A stretch of DNA of 64,000 nt from an uncultured Clostridia bacterium (GCA_928721565.1 OV788638.1:204348-268347); one strand, 5' to 3'; numbered from the stretch's first letter, positions 3,204 to 61,188 are shown. The notes: generated by a model not told the origin, from the sequence alone. Made by a program: numbers and translations.

Positions 3204-5612
3204 TTAATTCATATTTCTAAGCATATCTAATGTTGCATTAATATATCTATTTGCAAAATTTTTATTCACAACTGACTGATGTCCTGTAACTCCTTGTTTT
3301 GGTAATTCTATTAATGCTGTTTTAGCTGCTCTATTTGTTGAACCTAAATAAGTTCTTCCCCATGCTATCATATATCCTGTTCCATATCTCCCAACAGACT
3401 TTTTATTATTTTCTGGAAATTGCCTATCATAATATGAACAAATTTCTTCATTGCCTATTAATTGTTGTGTCCATCCATGCAAATCAACTAGAAGTGTTTG
3501 TCCATTTTGTGATTTATTAGCCAACATAAAATTCCTTAACGTTTGTGCTTCATATGCTTGAAATCCAGCTGTTCCATTATAATTTCGGCTAGATGTAAAT
3601 CTTTGATATGAACTTCCTATTTGCCAACATCTATTCATGTCAATTCCTTTATTGTTAGGTGCTTGACTATATAGCGTTGTTCTTCCAGGTCCATTATTAG
3701 TCCATCCATTTGTTAATCCATCTTGATTAATACCTGGGAATATGTATATTGTCCATTTATCTGCCAAATCGTAATCTTTATCATTTAATAATTTATTATA
3801 AAATTGATTTGCAATATCAACTAATTCATATCCATCTCGACTCCATATATCCTCATACCCATGAATTGCAAATGTTGCAAAAAATACATTAGGTCCATTT
3901 CCATATTTTAAATAATTCAAATTATTTCCACCTTGCCCAGAAACCCTTAAACCTGTTTGTCCATATGTTCCTGATTGGTATTCTATTTTAGGTCTAATAT
4001 TTATATTAACTATTTTTTCTAATATCAAATTATTCTGTTTATCAAAGGCCTGAACCTTTAATACTCCTTTTGTGTTTGCTAGTTCGCTTAAATTTAATAT
4101 TGCTTCGAATCCAGGTAATGGATTATATTCTTTTCCTCCATAACCTTTTATTATTTCAAGTACATCATTTCTTGATGTTCTTGTTATCCCAGAATCAATT
4201 TTTTCATCATTAAATAATATCCTAATATTTACATTTTCAATATTAGTCATTAACCAGCCTTTAACCTTTACTTTTTCTGCTCCAACTTTGTTAGCTGGTT
4301 CGTCTATATACATAGTCACTCTGTCATGTGCAATTTTAGGTACTATTTTTATTTCTATTGCTTCTAGTCTTAGTCCTTTTTCTTCAGTTCCTGCAGTTTC
4401 TCCATCATTTGCCCAACCTTGCCATCCAACATCTTGTACTAGTACTCTATATTCAATGCTATATTCCTCTGTGTTTTCGATTTCTATCTTTATAGCCTCT
4501 ATTCTTTTGCTCTGCGATACCGTTCCTGCAATCTCTCCATTGTATTTCCAATCTTGCCAGCCTATATCTTGTACATGTACCCTATATTTTATTCTCATAT
4601 TATCAGTTGCATTAATTAAGTTTAATTTTATTGCTTCTATTCTTAGCAATCTTCCTTCTGTTCCTGCTTTTTCGCCATCTTTTTTCAAATTTTGCCACCC
4701 AATATCTTGCACATGTGCTGAATATGTTACATGAAGTTCTGTATCATAAAATATGTGTGATTCTAAAGTTCCTATTACTTTTCCTTTAGAATTTATTGTG
4801 TCAATTTTTATTATATGTTGACCTGCACTTAAATCTCTTGTATCAATTTCAAAACTATATTGTGGCATTAGATTCTGTTTAACAGTTCCATATCCTACTA
4901 CTCCTTTAATAACATCAGGTCTTTCTGCATATTTTATTCTATCTTCATCTAATTTTATTTGGTCAAAATAAGCTACTATCTTTGTATCTGAAACATCAGC
5001 CATTTTCCAACCAACTACATTTATTTTATCATTTTTATAATACACTGTTCCATCTTGTGCTTGATCCAAGTTCATTAAAACCTTAGCTCTTTTTTCTACT
5101 ATCTTTATTTCTATCGCTTCTAATCTTTTTAATTGTCCTTCTGTTCCTGCTGTCTCTCCATCATATTTCCAATCTTGCCATCCTATATCTTGGATATGTA
5201 CTCTATACATTATTGAATATTCTTCTGTTTCTTCTAATTCTATTTTTATCGCTTCTAATCTTTTAGATTGTCCTTCTGTTCCTGCTAATTCTCCATCATA
5301 TTTCCAGCCTTGCCATCCTATATCTTGTACATGTGTTTTATACTTTATTTTTATACCATCTGGCAAATTAGTTGAATTGATTTTTATTGCTTCTAATCTT
5401 TTAGATTGTCCTTCCGTTCCTGCCAATTCTCCATCATTTTTCCAACCTTGCCATCCGACATCTTGTACATGACAACTATATGTAACTCTAATATTTCCTT
5501 CCTCATACTCATTTCCTTGCACTTTCATCATTATAGCTATTTGCAATACAATTAAAAGCATTAATGCTTTTAACACTTTATACCCCTTATTATTTTTCAC
5601 TAAATATACCAC
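3204..5612 (-). CDS. Secreted ChW-repeat (clostridial hydrophobic W) protein with a C-terminal M14-like zinc carboxypeptidase / gamma-D-Glu-DAP peptidase domain
   Basis: A signal peptide is followed by at least 9 copies of a ~50-aa unit, Y..HVQDIGWQ.WK.DGE.AGT.G.SKRLEAIKI (the ChW consensus). The C-terminus has HGYE ... DLHGW, which resembles the M14 HxxE...H zinc ligands. Confidence 0.65.
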   Translation of the reverse strand: MVYLVKNNKGYKVLKALMLLIVLQIAIMMKVQGNEYEEGNIRVTYSCHVQDVGWQGWKNDGELAGTEGQSKRLEAIKINSTNLPDGIKIKYKTHVQDIGWQGWKYDGELAGTEGQSKRLEAIKIELEETEEYSIMYRVHIQDIGWQDWKYDGETAGTEGQLKRLEAIEIKIVEKRAKVLMNLDQAQDGTVYYKNDKINVVGWKMADVSDTKIVAYFDQIKLDEDRIKYAERPDVIKGVVGYGTVKQNLMPQYSFEIDTRDLSAGQHIIKIDTINSKGKVIGTLESHIFYDTELHVTYSAHVQDIGWQNLKKDGEKAGTEGRLLRIEAIKLNLINATDNMRIKYRVHVQDIGWQDWKYNGEIAGTVSQSKRIEAIKIEIENTEEYSIEYRVLVQDVGWQGWANDGETAGTEEKGLRLEAIEIKIVPKIAHDRVTMYIDEPANKVGAEKVKVKGWLMTNIENVNIRILFNDEKIDSGITRTSRNDVLEIIKGYGGKEYNPLPGFEAILNLSELANTKGVLKVQAFDKQNNLILEKIVNINIRPKIEYQSGTYGQTGLRVSGQGGNNLNYLKYGNGPNVFFATFAIHGYEDIWSRDGYELVDIANQFYNKLLNDKDYDLADKWTIYIFPGINQDGLTNGWTNNGPGRTTLYSQAPNNKGIDMNRCWQIGSSYQRFTSSRNYNGTAGFQAYEAQTLRNFMLANKSQNGQTLLVDLHGWTQQLIGNEEICSYYDRQFPENNKKSVGRYGTGYMIAWGRTYLGSTNRAAKTALIELPKQGVTGHQSVVNKNFANRYINATLDMLRNMN

Positions 5613-5621
5613 CTTATTTAA

Positions 5622-6599
5622 TTATTTTAAAAACACTAAATACGCTAAAACCGGAAAATGAAACAACACAATCTCTCTAACCATCTTTTTACCTTGATTC
5701 TTTCCAGCTAAAATTTTAAAAAACTCACTAAAATTCCAATTAATTTTAGTACTCTTCAAAACATCTGAATAATACCTTTCCGCTTCTTCCATAAACATCT
5801 GATCATCTCTGATAGCCGCATATTCCTTGCACATTTTAATACCACCAAGATAAGCTCTATTAATAGCATCTTTTCTGTATTCTAAAAAAGAGTTATAACT
5901 ATTGCCATGATCATTTTTCCATCTAGCAAGATTCTGATTTAAACTTCTTCCACCAAAAACATTAGTTCCATGTAATCTATAATCGAACAGAGCATCTTCA
6001 ATATAGCATATACCTTTTCCTTCATTCGCAAGAAATGCGGCAAGCCAATCATGTGCAATAACATCTTTTTTAAATGGAATCATTTTTTCTTTAACAGTTT
6101 TGGTAATAATTTGCGAACATCCTATTCCAACACATCTTGAAATAGCCAATTTGCTATTTTCTTTTACTAATGGCACATTTTTGTATTTAAAGTAATCATC
6201 TTGAATAACAACTCCATCTTCGTCAATTTGTCTACAGTTGCAATAGACCATATCAACATTTTCTTCTTTTAATTTAGATAAGCTTTTTTCAACTTTATCT
6301 TTATGCCATATATCATCATGATCTGAAAACATTATATAATCTGCTGTTGATTGTTGTAGTAAAAATTCAAAATTTTTATTATACCCTAAGTTTTTAGGTT
6401 GAATATACAATTCTATCCTTTTATCTTGCATTTTATATTGTTTCAATATTTTCGCAATTTGTGGATTAGTAGAATTGTCATCACTTATGTATATTTTAAT
6501 ATTTTTATATGTTTGGTTTAATATACTTTCTATTTGCTTTTTTAAATATTTTTCATTGGTATTATATGTTGTAACTAAAATATCAACTAATTCTTCCAT
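5622..6599 (-). CDS. Family-2 glycosyltransferase, paralog of 447..1442
   Basis: DILVTTYNTNEKYLKKQIESILNQTYKNIKIYISDDNSTNP; the N-terminal 50 residues align with the other GT2. Confidence 0.75.
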   Translation of the reverse strand: MEELVDILVTTYNTNEKYLKKQIESILNQTYKNIKIYISDDNSTNPQIAKILKQYKMQDKRIELYIQPKNLGYNKNFEFLLQQSTADYIMFSDHDDIWHKDKVEKSLSKLKEENVDMVYCNCRQIDEDGVVIQDDYFKYKNVPLVKENSKLAISRCVGIGCSQIITKTVKEKMIPFKKDVIAHDWLAAFLANEGKGICYIEDALFDYRLHGTNVFGGRSLNQNLARWKNDHGNSYNSFLEYRKDAINRAYLGGIKMCKEYAAIRDDQMFMEEAERYYSDVLKSTKINWNFSEFFKILAGKNQGKKMVREIVLFHFPVLAYLVFLK

Positions 6600-50255: not shown

Positions 50256-51364
50256 GGTTTGTCAAACATATGTCACACTTTATTGATGAATCTAGTGTTT
50301 CGTATACCAAATATGATATGTTGGCTCTACAATGCTTGAAATTCCTCATATTTCTCATTTGGACTTTTCCATCCTAATGGTTTCATTGGAAAGTTATTAT
50401 ACTCTCTTGACCAATGCCTTAATTTTTCTTTAAAATCTTCAAAACTTACAAATATTCTCTTGTAATAAAATCTTTCTTGATCCTTTCTATGACTTCTTTC
50501 TACTTTTCCGTTATGCCTTGGTGTCCTTGGTTTTATTAGTTTATGCTCTATTCCCATTTCTTCCATTCTCTTTTCAAACATTGTCTTCTCTTTTGCTTTT
50601 CTCGAATTTAGTCTATTTGTAAATTCAAATCCATTGTCTGTTTGTATACATTCTATTTTATATTTGAATTTCTTTATTATTATTTCTAAAAATTGTGTTG
50701 ATGCATAGGTACTATGTTCTTTGCTAGCCCATAATACTCTCTGCCTTGTATACTCATCTATTGCTGTATATTGATAATATTTCTCTTCTAGCTCTTTCAA
50801 TTCATTTGACATACATTTCTGTGGCACATATTTTACATCTATTTGTATTCTTTCTCCTGGATGACTCATTTTCTGATATGGTTTTGGTTCATATTTTTTC
50901 TTTTTACTTGGTGCTTTTTTATATATTCCTAGTCTTTGCATCACCCTATACAAACTCGTTATTTGCCTTGTATATCCGTTTCTTATCAATTTTATCCACA
51001 ATACCACTAACCCTGCGTCTGGGTTTTGAGCTTTATATTTCTTTATCATTTTTATTTCTTCCTGTGTATGTTGATTTGGGTGTGAATGTGGTCTTCTTGA
51101 TTTATTCACTAATGATTTTCTACTTCCATCATATTTTTCTCTCCATCTATATATTGTTTTTCTATGCTGTTTATATCTTTTCGCTGCTTCTGTCACTCCG
51201 TGTTTTAATGAATATTCTACAACTGATTGCTTAAATATTATATCTTGTGTTATACTATTCATAGGAAATACCTTCTTTCGATATTAGTTTTGTGGTAAAA
51301 ACATTATATCATATTGGTATTTCCTTTTTTTATTCTTTAGTGTGACATATCTATTGTAAACCTA
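50256..51364 (-). mobile_element. IS481-family insertion sequence (about 1.1 kb, single transposase ORF) with roughly 26-bp imperfect terminal inverted repeats
   Basis: IRL is taggtttgtcaaacatatgtcacact. The reverse complement of IRR is taggtttacaatagatatgtcacact. The element is flanked by identical 27-bp direct repeats. Confidence 0.7.
50327..51262 (-). CDS. IS481-family DDE transposase (N-terminal HTH plus rve integrase core)
   Basis: D-D-E triad context IQIDVKYVP / IQTDNGFEF / HNGKVERSHR, with an N-terminal HTH KTIYRWREKYDG. Confidence 0.8.
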   Translation of the reverse strand: MNSITQDIIFKQSVVEYSLKHGVTEAAKRYKQHRKTIYRWREKYDGSRKSLVNKSRRPHSHPNQHTQEEIKMIKKYKAQNPDAGLVVLWIKLIRNGYTRQITSLYRVMQRLGIYKKAPSKKKKYEPKPYQKMSHPGERIQIDVKYVPQKCMSNELKELEEKYYQYTAIDEYTRQRVLWASKEHSTYASTQFLEIIIKKFKYKIECIQTDNGFEFTNRLNSRKAKEKTMFEKRMEEMGIEHKLIKPRTPRHNGKVERSHRKDQERFYYKRIFVSFEDFKEKLRHWSREYNNFPMKPLGWKSPNEKYEEFQAL

Positions 51365-53368: not shown

Positions 53369-53568
53369 TATGAGCTCACATCCCTTCTAAATTCATTTTT
53401 AAAGTGACAATTAAATTATACTATAGTTACATATTTATGTCAAGTGCAATAGAATTTTGAATGGACAATATGTAAAAAAGTTATTTTTTTTCGTTTTTTC
53501 TATTGACAAATTATAATAAAGATATTATAATAGTCATTGTCGTAAGACATTGCCAGATTATAACACAT

Positions 53569-53657
53569 GCAGATGTGGCGGAACTGGCAGACGCACAGGA
53601 CTTAAAATCCTGCGGTGGTTAAACACCGTGCCGGTTCGATTCCGGCCATCTGCACCA
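53569..53657 (+). tRNA. tRNA-Leu (UAA), with a long variable arm
   Basis: GCAGATGTGGCGGAACTGGCAGACGC...GGACTTAAAATCC...CCGGTTCGATTCCGGCCATCTGCACCA. Confidence 0.85.
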
Positions 53658-53660
53658 AGA

Positions 53661-53692
53661 AAAAGATTATCATTAGATAATCTTTTTTATTT
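53661..53692 (+). terminator. Terminator after tRNA-Leu (copy 1 of a duplicated roughly 45-bp segment)
   Basis: aagattatc-atta-gataatctt followed by ttttatttt. Confidence 0.6.
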
Positions 53693-53806
53693 TATATAAA
53701 CGTTCGGAATCGAAAAGGAAGTTGCCAAGCTTCGTGCTGGTCTGGAGCCAGCCGAAGCGTAGGTAAAAATAATCCTGCGGATTATTTTTCTGACGCGGCT
53801 TGTCGT

Positions 53807-53825
53807 ATTCCGGCCATCTGCACCA
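53807..53825 (+). repeat. 19-bp perfect copy of the tRNA-Leu 3' end (attccggccatctgcacca), embedded in a roughly 55-bp degenerate copy of the tRNA 3' half
   Basis: Identical to 53639..53657. Upstream, aatcctgcgg also matches the tRNA anticodon and variable-arm region. Confidence 0.8.
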
Positions 53826-54380
53826 ATGACGTATCTGTTCGAACTTTTTAGAACAGATGATATGAAAATCAATCAGTAAAATGGTTGATTTCTTTCTTTT
53901 GCAAAAAATCATCCTAAAATTACAATGAAAGGATGGTGCTTGAAATGAAGATAATTAAGCAAGAACTAGAATTTGAAGAATGTCTAAAACAACGCTCGGA
54001 ATTTATATGTGAATTTTCTAAAGTTACTCCTACTTTTATCAATGGTAGTATAATGTTTTATTTCAATTTTGCTGAAGATAACTCTGCTTTCAGTAGCTGT
54101 TAAGCCAGTAAAATTGCAAGTTAATTTTATAAATTTTAGCTCAGTGAGATAAAGGAAATGGAAACAACAGAACAAAATAAAGTTACATTGTATTTGTTTA
54201 ATAATATAAAAGTTATCTAATACACATTTAGCACAAAAAAATTCAAGTACAAATATAAAAAATACTTGAAAAATCAGCTCAAAAATGATAAGATATTTAT
54301 GTTAATTTCTTTTTAATCCTGTTTTTTAGATTAACATATAACTTCAATAGTAAAATTATTATTTTAAGGAGGAAAAACAA

Positions 54381-54749
54381 ATGTTAAGCGAAAAGAATCT
54401 TCGGGAAATCAAGGAATATGAGGAAGCTGGTATTGATGTTGTTGCCATAGGCAGTCATGGAACACTAGATTACTCTACTAAAGGCATGGGGGGCTGTGAA
54501 TATTGCGACCAGTGTAGTGACTTTAGGTTACTTCCTGATCCTGATCCATTCGATTGGTTCAGGAACGGCGATATGAAGGCAGTATGCCTTGAGGTTAATG
54601 GAGTAATTGAAGGCTCTCTTGAGAGACCTAGCGAATGGACTAATATTCGCAAACCTCTCTACTGCCCTAAACTCGGTCGTGAACTGAGTGAAGAAGAAAA
54701 GAAAACAGCAGCTGAAAGTCTGAAATGGGCAAAAGAAATGATGAAGTGA
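54381..54749 (+). CDS. GC-elevated Cys-rich orphan protein (122 aa); possibly metal or Fe-S binding (CxxCxxC...CP)
   Basis: AGGAGG lies 8 nt upstream of the ATG. About 42 % GC against roughly 27 % background. Motifs GMGGCEYCDQC and later LYCP. It sits inside a segment bracketed by duplicated tRNA-Leu end and terminator sequence. Confidence 0.5.
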   Translation: MLSEKNLREIKEYEEAGIDVVAIGSHGTLDYSTKGMGGCEYCDQCSDFRLLPDPDPFDWFRNGDMKAVCLEVNGVIEGSLERPSEWTNIRKPLYCPKLGRELSEEEKKTAAESLKWAKEMMK

Positions 54750-54956
54750 AGATAACTTTTCACATCGACAAGAGAGATGTTGCTTTATACAACATCTCTT
54801 TTAGTATAAATACTAACATTTCTTAATTATTATGTTAGTATAAAATTTTAAATTTGTATTGCATTTTAGCAAAAATATGAGATACTTTAGTAAATTGATT
54901 AATATTTGTATCAATCGTTAAAGTTGTGAAAAAAGTTGTAGATATCTACGTTGTTC

Positions 54957-55000
54957 GCACCAAGAAAGATTATCATTAGATAATCTTTTTTTATTTTACA
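54957..55000 (+). repeat. Second copy of the tRNA-Leu terminal gcacca plus its terminator hairpin (direct repeat of 53652..53696)
   Basis: gcaccaagaaagattatcattagataatctttttttatttt matches gcaccaagaaaaagattatcattagataatcttttttatttt. Confidence 0.8.
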
Positions 55001-55143
55001 CTATCATTAAAAGTGCTTAATAGCATATATATTACTAGAAAAACGATGGCTTACCTATTAAGTCATCGTTTTTCTAAAATTAAAGTTTTCCAAAAAAAAT
55101 TACACACTTTACTTGACAAAGTCTAAAACTCCCCTTTATAAAT

Positions 55144-58917: not shown

Positions 58918-61188
58918 CTAATAATTTTTTTTCATTTGATTTAATGTATTATTCATTCTTGGCGAAAATCCATTACTATTATTATTTCTTATTGATGGTG
59001 GTGCATACTTTTCTTTTTTATTACCACTTTTGTATACCATATTAGCTAAATTCCTTAAACTTTGAATAAATTCTTTAGAGTATCCTTTTAATGATATATC
59101 ACAGGTTACTAATCCATCTAAATATCTTAAATATGATTTAAGATCAAATGGTATTGTAACATGTTTTACTGTTTTTCTATCAAATAATTCTTTTCTAACA
59201 GTCATTGATGCATCATTATATATTGAAATTCCACCTATTAATATTCCTTCACTAATCTCTCTTGTATTTATGAATTTATTTAATACTACTCTTGCTTTTG
59301 ATTCTTCAAACATGCCTTTATCACTTAATTGTCTTAAAAATGCTGTAAGTGGTTGTATTGTTAAAATATCCATTGATTGAACTATATATATTTCTTGAGC
59401 ATATTTAAAATATCTATTTGGTGTTGTAAAATCACAATCCATTAATACAACTGTATGCATTTCTAATAGAGTTTGTACTATTGGCTCAACTGCCTCTAAA
59501 TTTTCATCCTTCTCAAATGGAGATGTGTATATAGTTAAATTTTTATGAGCTTGTATTCCATTTGCTTTACCTATTTTTAAATTTTTCATTATATAATTTG
59601 ATTGATTTCGTAGTTCTTCTTCATTTTTGGTATATATATAATATGCATTTCTGTTTTGTGTTAAATCCAATATCGCTGTATTTATACCGTTTGTTGATAA
59701 TATTTCTGCCACATTGTTTATTAAAAATGATGTTCCATTTTTACTAGTTCCAACAAATGCTGCTAGTTTTTGATTTGAGTTTATTATATTATCTATATTT
59801 AATTCAGGATATTGTTCTATTTCTTCTTTTTTATTAATTTCGTTTGACGTTTTTAAACTATTTAGAACATTTGCATATTGTTCTTCAATTCTGTCATCAT
59901 TATCATTATTTTCAAATCCTGGCAATGTTGTTTCTTCTTCACTATCTTCAAATCCTGGTAGTGTTGTTTCTTCTTCACTGTTTTCGAATCCTGGTAATGT
60001 TACTTCTTCCTCACTATTTTCGAATCCTGGTAAAGTTGTTTCTTCTTTACTGTTTTCAAATCCTGGTAAAATTGTTTCTTCTTCACTGTTTTCGAATCCT
60101 GGTAATGTTGTTTCTTCTTGTTCTTCAACAGGTTTAACCTTTGGCGGTCTTCCTCTTTTTCTTTTTGGTTGTTCTGCTGCTGGTTCTTCTACCTTCTTTT
60201 TTGGTGGTCTTCCTCTTCCACGTTTTACAGGTTTCATTTCTTCTTTTTCTATATTTTCAATCTTTTCTATTTCATCAGGTATTGTTTCTGGAACTACTTT
60301 TGGTCTTTTCTCACTAATTGGCTTAGATGTATCTGCTGGTTTTGTAAGTATTTTTTTCTTCTTTAATCCTATTGTAGAAGGAATAACTACTGGTGCACTT
60401 GGTTTTTTTGTTCTACTATTGTTTAATAGTATTTCGCTTGTTCCCTCTTTTTCTTGTGGCTTTTCTAACCTTACTTTATCAGATATTTTATTACTATATG
60501 AGTTTACTTCTTGATATTTTTTAGATTTTTCTTCTAAAACTGCTCTTACATTAAGTGGCAAGCATTTGCTTATTACTTTTAATTGTGTATCATTGTATTG
60601 GCTTGCTATACTGTCAAAGCTTTCTACATATTTTTCTTCATCATTACCAATTCTTTTGTAATGTGCTAATATATTTTGAATTTCTAATTCACTAACATCA
60701 TTTTCATCATCTTTTTCATATGTTACATCTTCTGTATCTATCTTATAATAGATTTTAGCTTCTTTTTTTGAACGTGGTCTTTTTATTAGTTTGCAAACCT
60801 CACTTGCGCTTCTGTCATTTCCTAATAGTATGTCATATATTCCTATTCCAAATAATTTAACTAATATTTGTTCTGATTTGTTTCTTCTTTCTGTACATAT
60901 TAAAATTATAGGAATATTTTCTCCTTTAGTATTTGAAGCTTCATCACTAATACTATCTAATCTATCAAATAAGAATTTGTCCATTTGTTCATAATCAGTA
61001 TTAACATATTGTTCCAAATCTTCGCTTATTACTATTCTATCATATGTTTTGTCTCTTTGTAATTCTTTTAATATTGCATTAAAGTAATAAACATTTTTGT
61101 ATGATATTATTTGTTTATATTCTGCTTGATATTTTTTTATTATAGCTTGTGATGTATTTTCATTACTTACTGCAAATAAAACTTTCAT
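58918..61188 (-). CDS. 756-aa multidomain protein: N-terminal atypical receiver-like domain, basic AT-hook region, six 12-aa tandem repeats, and a C-terminal ParA/MinD-like domain with a degenerate P-loop (TadZ/CpaE-like ends with a roughly 300-aa insert)
   Basis: Receiver-like MKVLFAVSNE...RIVISEDL...IPIILICTERR...GIYDILLG. AT-hooks KRGRGRPPKKK and KRKRGRPPKVK. Six EETTLPGFENSE repeats. A Walker A-like FVGTSKNGTSF and Walker B-like VVLMDCDFTTP about 110 aa apart. Confidence 0.5.
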   Translation of the reverse strand: MKVLFAVSNENTSQAIIKKYQAEYKQIISYKNVYYFNAILKELQRDKTYDRIVISEDLEQYVNTDYEQMDKFLFDRLDSISDEASNTKGENIPIILICTERRNKSEQILVKLFGIGIYDILLGNDRSASEVCKLIKRPRSKKEAKIYYKIDTEDVTYEKDDENDVSELEIQNILAHYKRIGNDEEKYVESFDSIASQYNDTQLKVISKCLPLNVRAVLEEKSKKYQEVNSYSNKISDKVRLEKPQEKEGTSEILLNNSRTKKPSAPVVIPSTIGLKKKKILTKPADTSKPISEKRPKVVPETIPDEIEKIENIEKEEMKPVKRGRGRPPKKKVEEPAAEQPKRKRGRPPKVKPVEEQEETTLPGFENSEEETILPGFENSKEETTLPGFENSEEEVTLPGFENSEEETTLPGFEDSEEETTLPGFENNDNDDRIEEQYANVLNSLKTSNEINKKEEIEQYPELNIDNIINSNQKLAAFVGTSKNGTSFLINNVAEILSTNGINTAILDLTQNRNAYYIYTKNEEELRNQSNYIMKNLKIGKANGIQAHKNLTIYTSPFEKDENLEAVEPIVQTLLEMHTVVLMDCDFTTPNRYFKYAQEIYIVQSMDILTIQPLTAFLRQLSDKGMFEESKARVVLNKFINTREISEGILIGGISIYNDASMTVRKELFDRKTVKHVTIPFDLKSYLRYLDGLVTCDISLKGYSKEFIQSLRNLANMVYKSGNKKEKYAPPSIRNNNSNGFSPRMNNTLNQMKKNY
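59911..60126. repeat. Six tandem 36-bp coding repeats inside the 756-aa gene
   Basis: ttc[a/g]aatcctggtaatgttgtttcttcttcact[a/g]t[c/t] x6, encoding (E)ETTLPGFENSE. Confidence 0.9.

Follow-up and report, generated by a model that had tools for sequence, protein, structure and literature searches.

A small four-cysteine protein encoded in a tRNA-Leu island remnant of an uncultured Clostridia bacterium belongs to a family spread among tRNA-linked islands and gut phages

The DNA analysed here, the window, is a stretch of 64,000 nucleotides from an uncultured Clostridia bacterium (GCA_928721565.1, OV788638.1:204348-268347). Downstream of a tRNA-Leu gene with the anticodon TAA, it contains an open reading frame (ORF) for a protein of 122 residues, on the plus strand at 54381-54749 and starting with ATG, exactly where an earlier note on this sequence had placed it. 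The gene belongs to a large family of small acidic proteins with four essentially invariant cysteines, and it appears to have spread horizontally as part of a module found at the end of variable islands at many tRNA genes. An AGGAGG ribosome-binding site at 54367-54372 (+) is located 8 nucleotides ahead of the start codon; it is conserved upstream of homologues, and AAGGAGGAA at this site is kept in six out of six aligned upstream regions. A consensus scan identified a candidate sigma-70 promoter at 54266-54294 (+), TTGAAA-17-TAAGAT, with an upstream TG suggesting an extended -10 element. The equivalent TTGAAA...TGATAAAAT is kept at loci L023 and L031 (loci in other genomes and contigs are given by their L numbers). 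Behind the gene, at 54773-54802 (+), inspection of the sequence revealed a probable intrinsic terminator with a 10-base pair stem, AGAGATGTTG/CAACATCTCT, a loop of seven nucleotides and a final TTT; the scan made no terminator call here because the T-run is short.

The base composition of the gene is foreign to its surroundings. Its guanine plus cytosine (GC) content is 0.431, compared with 0.296 for the whole window and 0.286 ± 0.029 for the 39 window ORFs of at least 200 residues; for the third codon position (GC3), the value is 0.366, against 0.142 ± 0.049 for the same 39 ORFs. CGG, AGG, GGG and CTG are among the codons used, and the sole other window ORF with a comparable GC3 is a spurious, leucine-rich antisense frame. 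The earlier note had described both a perfect ribosome-binding site and a GC content of about 42% against roughly 27%, and these observations hold. At 21 of 21 loci, the gene is richer in GC than the surrounding long ORFs (mean GC 0.406 versus 0.277, GC3 0.308 versus 0.143), with GC3 values down to 0.17-0.21 in the more divergent family members of this comparison, while the GC content of phage homologues tracks that of the phage (0.28-0.53). This pattern fits import from a mobile gene pool of richer GC, followed by partial amelioration.

The gene had been regarded as an orphan, which it is not. Among 5.8 billion clustered proteins, 145 homologues were found with 58-94% identity, nearly all of them 120-125 residues long. 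A profile search of 1.84 billion cluster representatives yielded 115 matches at E < 1e-3, with the best E-values reaching 1e-52 and a common core of approximately residues 36-100; the core was also found in 64 IMG/VR viral contigs. In total, more than 260 homologues are known from uncultured gut Clostridia and gut phages. Their phylogenetic distribution, a check the earlier note had suggested, covers 34 species-level genomes, all metagenome-assembled genomes (MAGs) of uncultured gut Clostridia, plus the viral contigs. The window itself encodes no paralogue. More than 100 clusters contain the ORF at full length, and the ratio of non-synonymous to synonymous divergence (dN/dS) relative to the window ORF has a median of 0.14 over 24 pairs, ranging from 0.07 to 0.24 wherever dS is measurable; only in the two closest pairs, with L023 and L026, is it not below one. 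Given the low dN/dS and the many homologues, this is a genuine protein-coding gene under purifying selection.

Searches for relatives with a name returned very little. Pfam matched no family to the window protein at E ≤ 10 and, in 32 diverse members, no Fer4 family at E ≤ 1 and no iron-sulphur family such as rubredoxin at E ≤ 10. None of the 145 close homologues carries a Pfam domain or an informative name. NCBIfam contained no match, a first PDB sequence search found no relative, and tblastn against 50,697 annotated phage records gave no match, nor did annotated plasmids; a second large homology search, with a diverse alignment as the query, returned the same close set, without names. As judged from these databases, the protein belongs to no described family, with no Pfam, NCBIfam or PADLOC entry. 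Matches to C2H2 zinc fingers in the PDB (per-domain E-values of 11-75) were rejected, as they merely reflect the resemblance of the linker EKPYxCPxCGKSF to KPLYCPKLGREL. In the longer 'fusion' members, partner domains do not recur (an Aminotran_5 fragment, NUDIX and ASL_C2 were seen once each); these members are probably gene-call artefacts.

In the window protein, the sequences GMGGCEYCDQC and YCP are present, giving C39-x2-C42-x2-C45 and a distal C95-P96. Conservation was counted over 263 members aligned to the family profile, after earlier alignments of 28, 87 and 32 (distant) members. Cys42 is present in 262 of 263 sequences, Cys45 and Cys69 in all 263, Cys95 in 255 of 256 and Pro96 in 250 of 256. 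Position 39 is a cysteine in only 33 of 120 close homologues, serine being commoner, and cysteine is not among its three commonest residues in the distant (n = 107) and viral (n = 25) sets. The CxxCxxC triad is limited to the window sequence and some close relatives; the conserved spacing of the family is CxxC-x23-C-x25-CP. Of the CxxCxxC...CP motif emphasized in the earlier note, the letters are therefore present as written and Cys42, Cys45 and Cys95-Pro96 are retained throughout the family, but Cys39 is variable. Lack of conservation of the cysteine pattern, which that note considered damaging to its proposal, is found for this first cysteine, while four other cysteines are essentially invariant.

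The family signature extends beyond the cysteines and can be written CxxC-x6-PDPDPxDWF-x3-D-x-K-A-x-C ... (L/C)-x-(R)P-x-E ... P-x-(Y/W)-C-P. Its most distinctive part is the loop from Pro52 to Phe60, P-D-P-D-P-x-D-W-F, which is invariant in all 29 distinct viral members. We refer to proteins of 60-125 residues with the core CxxC-x6-PDPDPxDWF...C...PxxCP and no other domain as the 'PDPDP-DWF Cys4' family; the window protein has every core residue. The core measures about 60 residues, to which the bacterial form adds N- and C-terminal helices. The window protein is acidic, with a pI of 4.8, and so is the family, the medians for close, distant and viral members all being around 5. Some 25 members form a subfamily that has acquired a further, correlated set of ligands at positions 48, 61, 80 and 86-91; position 48 is a cysteine in 12% and a histidine in 13% of the members. 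The AlphaFold model has a compact fold and is confident, with a predicted local distance difference test score (pLDDT) of 87.3 and a predicted template modelling score (pTM) of 0.76; a structure search with it matched no solved fold, and no ferredoxin fold in particular. A HicA-like reading of the N-terminal 'GSHG' was rejected because its histidine is variable and there is no match to a double-stranded RNA-binding domain-like fold.

The presence of four essentially invariant cysteines makes metal binding very likely. We lean slightly towards a single structural zinc ion as the occupant of this site, rather than an iron or iron-sulphur centre, which from the sequence and model seems rather unlikely. 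Gain and loss of whole ligand sets, together with interchange of cysteine and histidine, is typical of structural zinc sites, and four-cysteine zinc proteins include the Ogr/Delta activators and the N-domain of MqsA. By analogy, the protein resembles the small zinc modules with a structural role that mobile elements encode (zinc ribbons, treble clefs, Ogr/Delta, the MqsA N-domain): it is small, has four cysteines and is borne by phages and islands, and accessory cysteine and histidine ligand sets are gained or lost between subfamilies. When compared with zinc ribbons and treble clefs, it has one CxxC only, the other ligands being single cysteines, and no structural match. Because of the acidic pI, a DNA-binding zinc finger is disfavoured, while a ferredoxin-like carrier or a protein-binding inhibitor would both fit. 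The ligand spacing of a single ferredoxin-type [4Fe-4S] cluster, claimed in the earlier note, is resembled by C39-x2-C42-x2-C45 and C95-P96 of the window protein, but not by the CxxC-x23-C-x25-CP of the family, with its variable position 39. The profile and structure searches proposed there gave no family at E ≤ 10 and a confident fold unlike ferredoxin, without any Fer4 match. The suggested resemblance to CGGC-type redox domains fares no better, as the GGC of GMGGC is not conserved and no Pfam match was found. Owing to the variability of Cys39, both readings fail on conservation.

The island in which the gene is located begins at the tRNA-Leu(TAA) gene at 53569-53657 (+), which ARAGORN and Rfam (59.3 bits) identify and which would be the integration target; it has a perfect TTGACA-17-TATAAT promoter at 53503-53531 according to the consensus scan. 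The last bases of the tRNA gene, GCACCAAG, and a terminator hairpin, AAAGATTATCATTAGATAATCTTTTTT, form a left attachment site (att)-like direct repeat at 53652-53693 (+). It recurs as GCACCAAG plus terminator hairpin at 54957-54996 (+), where the island has its right boundary and homology to other loci ends. The copies are about 42 nucleotides long and spaced 1303 nucleotides apart; they share GCACCAAG and 94% identity over 32 nucleotides, and are matched to each other by blastn with 93% identity over 44 nucleotides. The claim that the gene is cargo of a tRNA-Leu island is supported by these repeats of the tRNA 3' end and terminator, with the tRNA gene on the same strand. Starting exactly after GCACCAA, a conserved left end of the island at 53827-53900 (+) contains the hairpins ATCTGTTC/GAACAGAT and AATCAATCAG/TGGTTGATT, followed by a T-run; the same sequence is found directly 3' of tRNA-Leu genes with anticodons CAA, TAG and GAG and of a tRNA-Arg gene with anticodon CCT in L023, L011, L039, L015, L043 and L031.

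Between the left end and the module with the 122-residue ORF, only remnants of genes were found. At 53894-54052 (+) lies the N-terminal stub of a 93-residue gene (blastx, 89% identity over 53 residues to an ORF in L121 and L122), and at 54134-54217 (+) the C-terminal remnant of a gene of about 100 residues, p100 (blastx and tblastn, 68% over 28 residues, corresponding to residues 73-100 of the query). There is no integrase in the island, no ORF of more than 79 residues between 53660 and 54380, and no phage gene in its 1.3 kb. From these sequence features, the island is best explained as the 1.3-kb, integrase-less remainder of an integrative element that had inserted at the 3' end of tRNA-Leu(TAA). 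The protein genes flanking it are all on the opposite strand and of ordinary housekeeping type: on one side dUTPase, an rve-type insertion sequence (IS) transposase, a ComF-like phosphoribosyltransferase and NTPase_I-T, and on the other an MMR_HSR1 (RbgA-like) GTPase, RuvX and IreB.

At the DNA level, loci of other genomes resemble the window only in one discrete block of about 0.7 kb. This conserved mobile module, at 54251-54964 (+), comprises the candidate promoter, 5' untranslated region, ORF, terminator and right arm, and is 76-98% identical to loci at other tRNA genes. In blastn, the block spans 54251-54962 with 85% identity to L003-L010 and L024, 54154-54968 with 92% identity to L026 and 54148-54868 with 97.8% identity to L023; more distant loci give shorter spans. 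The right arm at 54806-54956 (+) is non-coding, 75-87% identical to six loci, and contains the palindromes TACTAACAT/ATGTTAGTA, TTGAT/ATCAA and GTAGAT/ATCTAC; it probably represents an att arm or putative protein-binding sites. The non-coding flanks are about as conserved as third codon positions, which the downstream arm surpasses in divergent pairs (75-77% versus 59-71%). At every locus, the block ends with ...AAAGTTGTAGATAnCTAC-N5-7-GGCACCA (the arm end reading GTTGTAGATAnCTAC-N5-7-GGCACCA), a pseudo-tRNA 3' terminus, and is followed by a locus-specific terminator hairpin. An origin of the module of the IS200/IS605 type was considered because both its ends abut GCACCA; there is no transposase, and site-specific integration fits equally well.

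An upstream tRNA gene on the same strand is present in at least 11 independent contexts, involving at least nine different tRNA genes: Leu-TAA, Leu-CAA (two), Leu-TAG (two), Leu-GAG, Arg-ACG, Arg-CCT, Gly-TCC (two, one beside tmRNA), Thr-GGT and Asp. The distance from tRNA to gene ranges from 190 nucleotides in L031, in the order tRNA, hairpins, promoter and gene, up to several kb. The stretch in between carries highly variable cargo, among it tyrosine integrases, a serine recombinase with a Mob_Pre relaxase and Bro-N, Abi_2, KAP nucleoside triphosphatases (NTPases), an SLFN/AlbA_2 protein, a 1300-residue AAA/M41 protein, a PemK toxin, an Apyc1-like metallo-beta-lactamase, IS elements and many proteins without assignment. 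Within a single species, this cargo differs from strain to strain (0.8, 2.7 or 5 kb, or tandem islands), with the target gene constant in place. Chromosomal genes past the module vary too (adenosine deaminase-like, RNase Y, ThiF/RuvAB, HD and RelA_SpoT; the RbgA-like GTPase in the window). The closest relative of the window gene, with 97.8% DNA identity, is located at a tRNA-Leu(CAA) gene in a different chromosomal neighbourhood, which indicates recent movement. Horizontal acquisition, which the earlier note had suggested, is supported by the sharing of this module by islands at other tRNA genes and by the raised GC and GC3 at all 21 loci compared.

The p100 gene is a recurrent upstream partner in the close clade. 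Full-length copies occur in L025 and L026 and truncated ones in L003-L010 and L035, while L023 and the window retain a stub; the target is always intact. Decay of p100 beside an intact target implies that selection acts specifically on the latter. The p100 protein (...KVKYLIDMINxMDxKxKLRLAxCMS...FGKYKLVMFxMAKxMEME...) has no Pfam or PHROG match; its gene is located at 4593-4892 in L025, 4851-5150 in L026, 7621-7875 in L003 and 6615-6899 in L019. A separate observation concerns L026, where positions 5184-5899, aligned with 54251-54968 of the window, are 97% identical at third codon positions and 84-88% in both non-coding flanks, and where the ORF has a dN of 0.044, above its dS of 0.021. Such a pattern suggests a mosaic, recent gene conversion restricted to the ORF, or diversifying change.

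The phage homologues are core-only proteins of 64-90 residues, encoded among arrays of small, often cysteine-rich hypothetical ORFs and homing-endonuclease-like genes. In five sequence-distinct groups of phages, the gene is located inside a tRNA array, on the same strand and with a tRNA gene within 500 nucleotides (23-470). These are an 81-residue group (L058, L082, L084, L099 and L102), a 71-residue group (L088, L092 and L098), L106, L112 and L118; in L092 and L098 the gene follows tRNA-Arg-TCT by just 23 nucleotides. About nine other groups have no tRNA gene within 8 kb. As three of these five groups are mutually related, the enrichment is suggestive rather than proven. The phage and bacterial linkages may together reflect a functional or mobility tie to tRNA genes. 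As a side observation, ARAGORN calls tRNAs with a CTA anticodon ('tRNA-Pyl') in the large phage contigs L058, L082 (at 1745-1816), L099 and L102. They are probably amber suppressors, hinting at reassignment of the TAG stop codon, and ORF calls made with translation table 11 may be imperfect in these four contigs.

Two described kinds of element help to place the gene. A moron is an independent transcription unit that has been added to a phage or prophage genome; it has a promoter and a terminator to itself, a GC content unlike its surroundings and horizontal spread, and is retained by the resident element (Cumby, Davidson and Maxwell 2012, PMC3594210). Like a moron, the window gene is a single gene of differing GC that spreads horizontally, and its candidate promoter and terminator may make it an independent unit as well. 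Its carrier, however, is a decayed integrative island at a tRNA gene with no recognizable prophage, the viral contigs hold distant, core-only homologues exclusively, and the module additionally includes the conserved non-coding right arm with its terminal pseudo-tRNA 3' end. A cis-mobilizable element (CIME) is a decayed integrative element that keeps attL and attR but has no recombination genes (Guedon et al. 2017, PMC5704250). The window island compares well, with its direct repeats at the tRNA-Leu 3' end as attL and attR, no integration or transfer genes and stubs of two small genes only. L019 looks like a related, intact element, containing a serine recombinase, a Mob_Pre relaxase, p100 and the target; Bro-N is part of the set in L019-L022, while L003-L010 contain tyrosine integrases. 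Unlike in a CIME, the same right-end module occurs with unrelated recombinases and at many different tRNA genes, which is more than one decayed lineage would give. By sequence comparison, the gene thus seems to have the behaviour of a moron and to be carried by what looks like a CIME or a decayed integrative and mobilizable element.

Taking these observations together, we propose that the 122-residue gene is a horizontally spread accessory gene, the only intact one left in the tRNA-Leu(TAA) island remnant, and that its self-contained module repeatedly forms the far end of the variable islands located beside many tRNA genes of low-GC gut Clostridia. The four cysteines would bind one structural Zn(II), stabilizing a compact domain, and the small, acidic, presumably cytoplasmic protein would bind a protein partner through the acidic-aromatic PDPDPxDWF loop. 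Expressed from its own promoter, it may be a factor of the inhibitor or immunity type that serves where mobile elements, phages and hosts come into conflict; it would be neither a redox carrier nor a DNA-binding regulator. We give this proposal as a whole, identity plus mode of action, a probability of roughly 0.45. The identity of the gene is the firm part, held with high confidence, and the mode of action is tentative. Several points weigh against the proposal: no neighbouring gene is conserved across the whole family, no partner protein emerged, and no homology points to a function, with no match in PADLOC and only weak PHROG matches to families without assigned function. Iron-sulphur proteins, too, have all-cysteine sites with a Cys-Pro ligand, and all hosts are probably anaerobes. 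Neither an empty site (the data being metagenome contigs) nor an excised form was found, exact look-ups of the flanking GTPase gene in sister strains were also null, and the promoter and terminator are predictions from inspection of the sequence alone.

Iron is the natural competitor for the cysteines. As a [4Fe-4S], [2Fe-2S] or rubredoxin-like Fe(Cys)4 site, they would make the protein a small electron carrier or a redox or oxygen sensor of mobile elements of anaerobes, in keeping with its acidity, with the four essentially invariant cysteines, one of them in a Cys-Pro, and with the origin of all genome matches in uncultured gut Clostridia MAGs; widely spaced single cysteine ligands (x23 and x25) are common in cluster proteins. 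We consider this unlikely, given that the CxxCxxC triad is not conserved, that no Fer4, rubredoxin or other iron-sulphur family was matched at E ≤ 10 and no ferredoxin-like fold was found, and that cysteine and histidine interchange at an accessory ligand position. The genes nearby encode integrases, Abi proteins, a KAP NTPase, toxins and proteins without assignment, but no redox partner, and minimal versions of the protein occur among small accessory ORFs of phages. A chance ORF or decaying pseudogene, its GC excess caused by another feature such as an RNA, might be imagined in a decayed island, next to two gene stubs and with dN/dS not below one for L023 and L026. It is effectively refuted by the full-length ORFs in over 100 clusters, the dN/dS of 0.07-0.24 in all pairs with measurable dS, the residues invariant across bacteria and phages, the confident model and the conserved ribosome-binding site, leaving it a negligible probability.

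The location of the gene, downstream of bacterial tRNA genes and inside phage tRNA arrays, would be explained if its function were tied to tRNA itself, the protein protecting, maturing or mimicking tRNA or inhibiting tRNA-cleaving defence nucleases. The at least 11 bacterial contexts with an upstream tRNA on the same strand, the tRNA-like 3' terminus of the module and the five phage groups with a tRNA gene less than 500 nucleotides away (23 in L092 and L098) are all consistent with this. Integration at tRNA genes is nevertheless sufficient to account for the bacterial link, as att repeats are present and L003-L010 and L019 contain integrases; about nine phage groups have no tRNA gene within 8 kb, three of the five that do are related, and the protein is acidic, with no known RNA-binding domain. 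Such a function is improbable. Similarly doubtful is a broader version in which a new small metal-binding class with a new fold travels with tRNA genes, in phage tRNA arrays and in an integrase-less cassette of about 0.7-1.1 kb with tRNA-derived ends; its function might be tied to tRNA, for instance by blocking tRNA-cleaving immune nucleases, or the cassette might represent a new, miniature kind of mobile unit that targets tRNA genes and is moved in trans or through recombination between such genes. A role in maintenance or regulation of the island, as a recombination directionality factor, an Ogr/Delta-like zinc-finger transcription factor or an antitoxin paired with p100, is less probable still. 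The constant distal position beside the att arm and the recurrent pairing with p100 in the close clade would suit such a factor, as would the four cysteines and zinc of Ogr/Delta and the MqsA N-domain. Directionality factors, however, are specific for their integrase, and the gene occurs with tyrosine integrases, with a serine recombinase or with neither. The protein is acidic and has no helix-turn-helix (HTH), its phage versions are found in non-integrative contexts, most members have no p100, and where p100 is present, a gap of 126-164 nucleotides and the candidate promoter separate it from the gene.

If the proposed accessory role is right, the gene represents a new compact family of phage- and island-borne proteins, without a solved fold and common in uncultured low-GC gut Clostridia. 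Selectively retained in decaying islands, and present in phage accessory regions and tRNA arrays, it would be a reasonable choice when screening for factors of defence and counter-defence, and it cleanly marks a family of variable islands linked to tRNA genes of low-GC gut Clostridia. Conserved hypothetical small proteins are very common on mobile elements and this gene is one of many; the type of mobile accessory unit is known, here carrying an undescribed protein family and fold. What could prove to be new is the association with tRNA genes and with the tRNA arrays of phages, as well as the miniature cassette whose ends derive from tRNA. The main practical result is the correction of the 'orphan ferredoxin-like' label.

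A second feature of the island is a structured element of about 168 nucleotides at 53659-53826 (+), directly behind the tRNA gene, which ends in a perfect 20-nucleotide duplicate of the tRNA-Leu 3' end (53807-53826). It was also found at 3299-3491 and 5727-5816 in L030 and at 734-907 in L034, in both cases at tRNA-Leu(CAA), and partially at 5759-5900 in L042. The element contains the terminator hairpin, an inverted T-arm copy whose sequence co-varies with the tRNA of the respective host, the sequences GAAAAGGAAGT and GACGCGGC, and two hairpins with compensatory changes. RNAalifold, with three sequences only, gave a closed fold of three stems in which 7 of 39 pairs are compensatory; Rfam at E ≤ 1 contained no match. 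It may represent a small RNA not described before, or else a non-autonomous integrative element of miniature size. A motif scan of viral contigs for it was discarded, as chance matches are expected with just 17 specified bases.

Outside the island, a near-perfect 18-nucleotide inverted repeat, TAGAAAAACGATGGCTTA/TAAGTCATCGTTTTTCTA, at 55036-55076, between the right att-like repeat and the GTPase gene, probably terminates transcription in both directions; its match to an Rfam miRNA is far below the gathering threshold and was dismissed as chance. The IS transposase (HTH_28 with rve and rve_3) is located at 50327-51262 (-), 2.3 kb from tRNA-Leu on the side away from the island, and a different IS (HTH_38 with rve) is inserted directly upstream of the target homologue in L123, at 3979-5040. 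Finally, a 756-residue protein without a Pfam match is encoded at 58918-61188 (-). It contains about six tandem acidic 'TLPGFENSEEE' units (repeats at approximately 59840-60140) and AT-hook-like 'KRGRGRPPK' motifs, and downstream of the repeats its C-terminal region resembles, by eye, ATPases of the ParA/MinD type.

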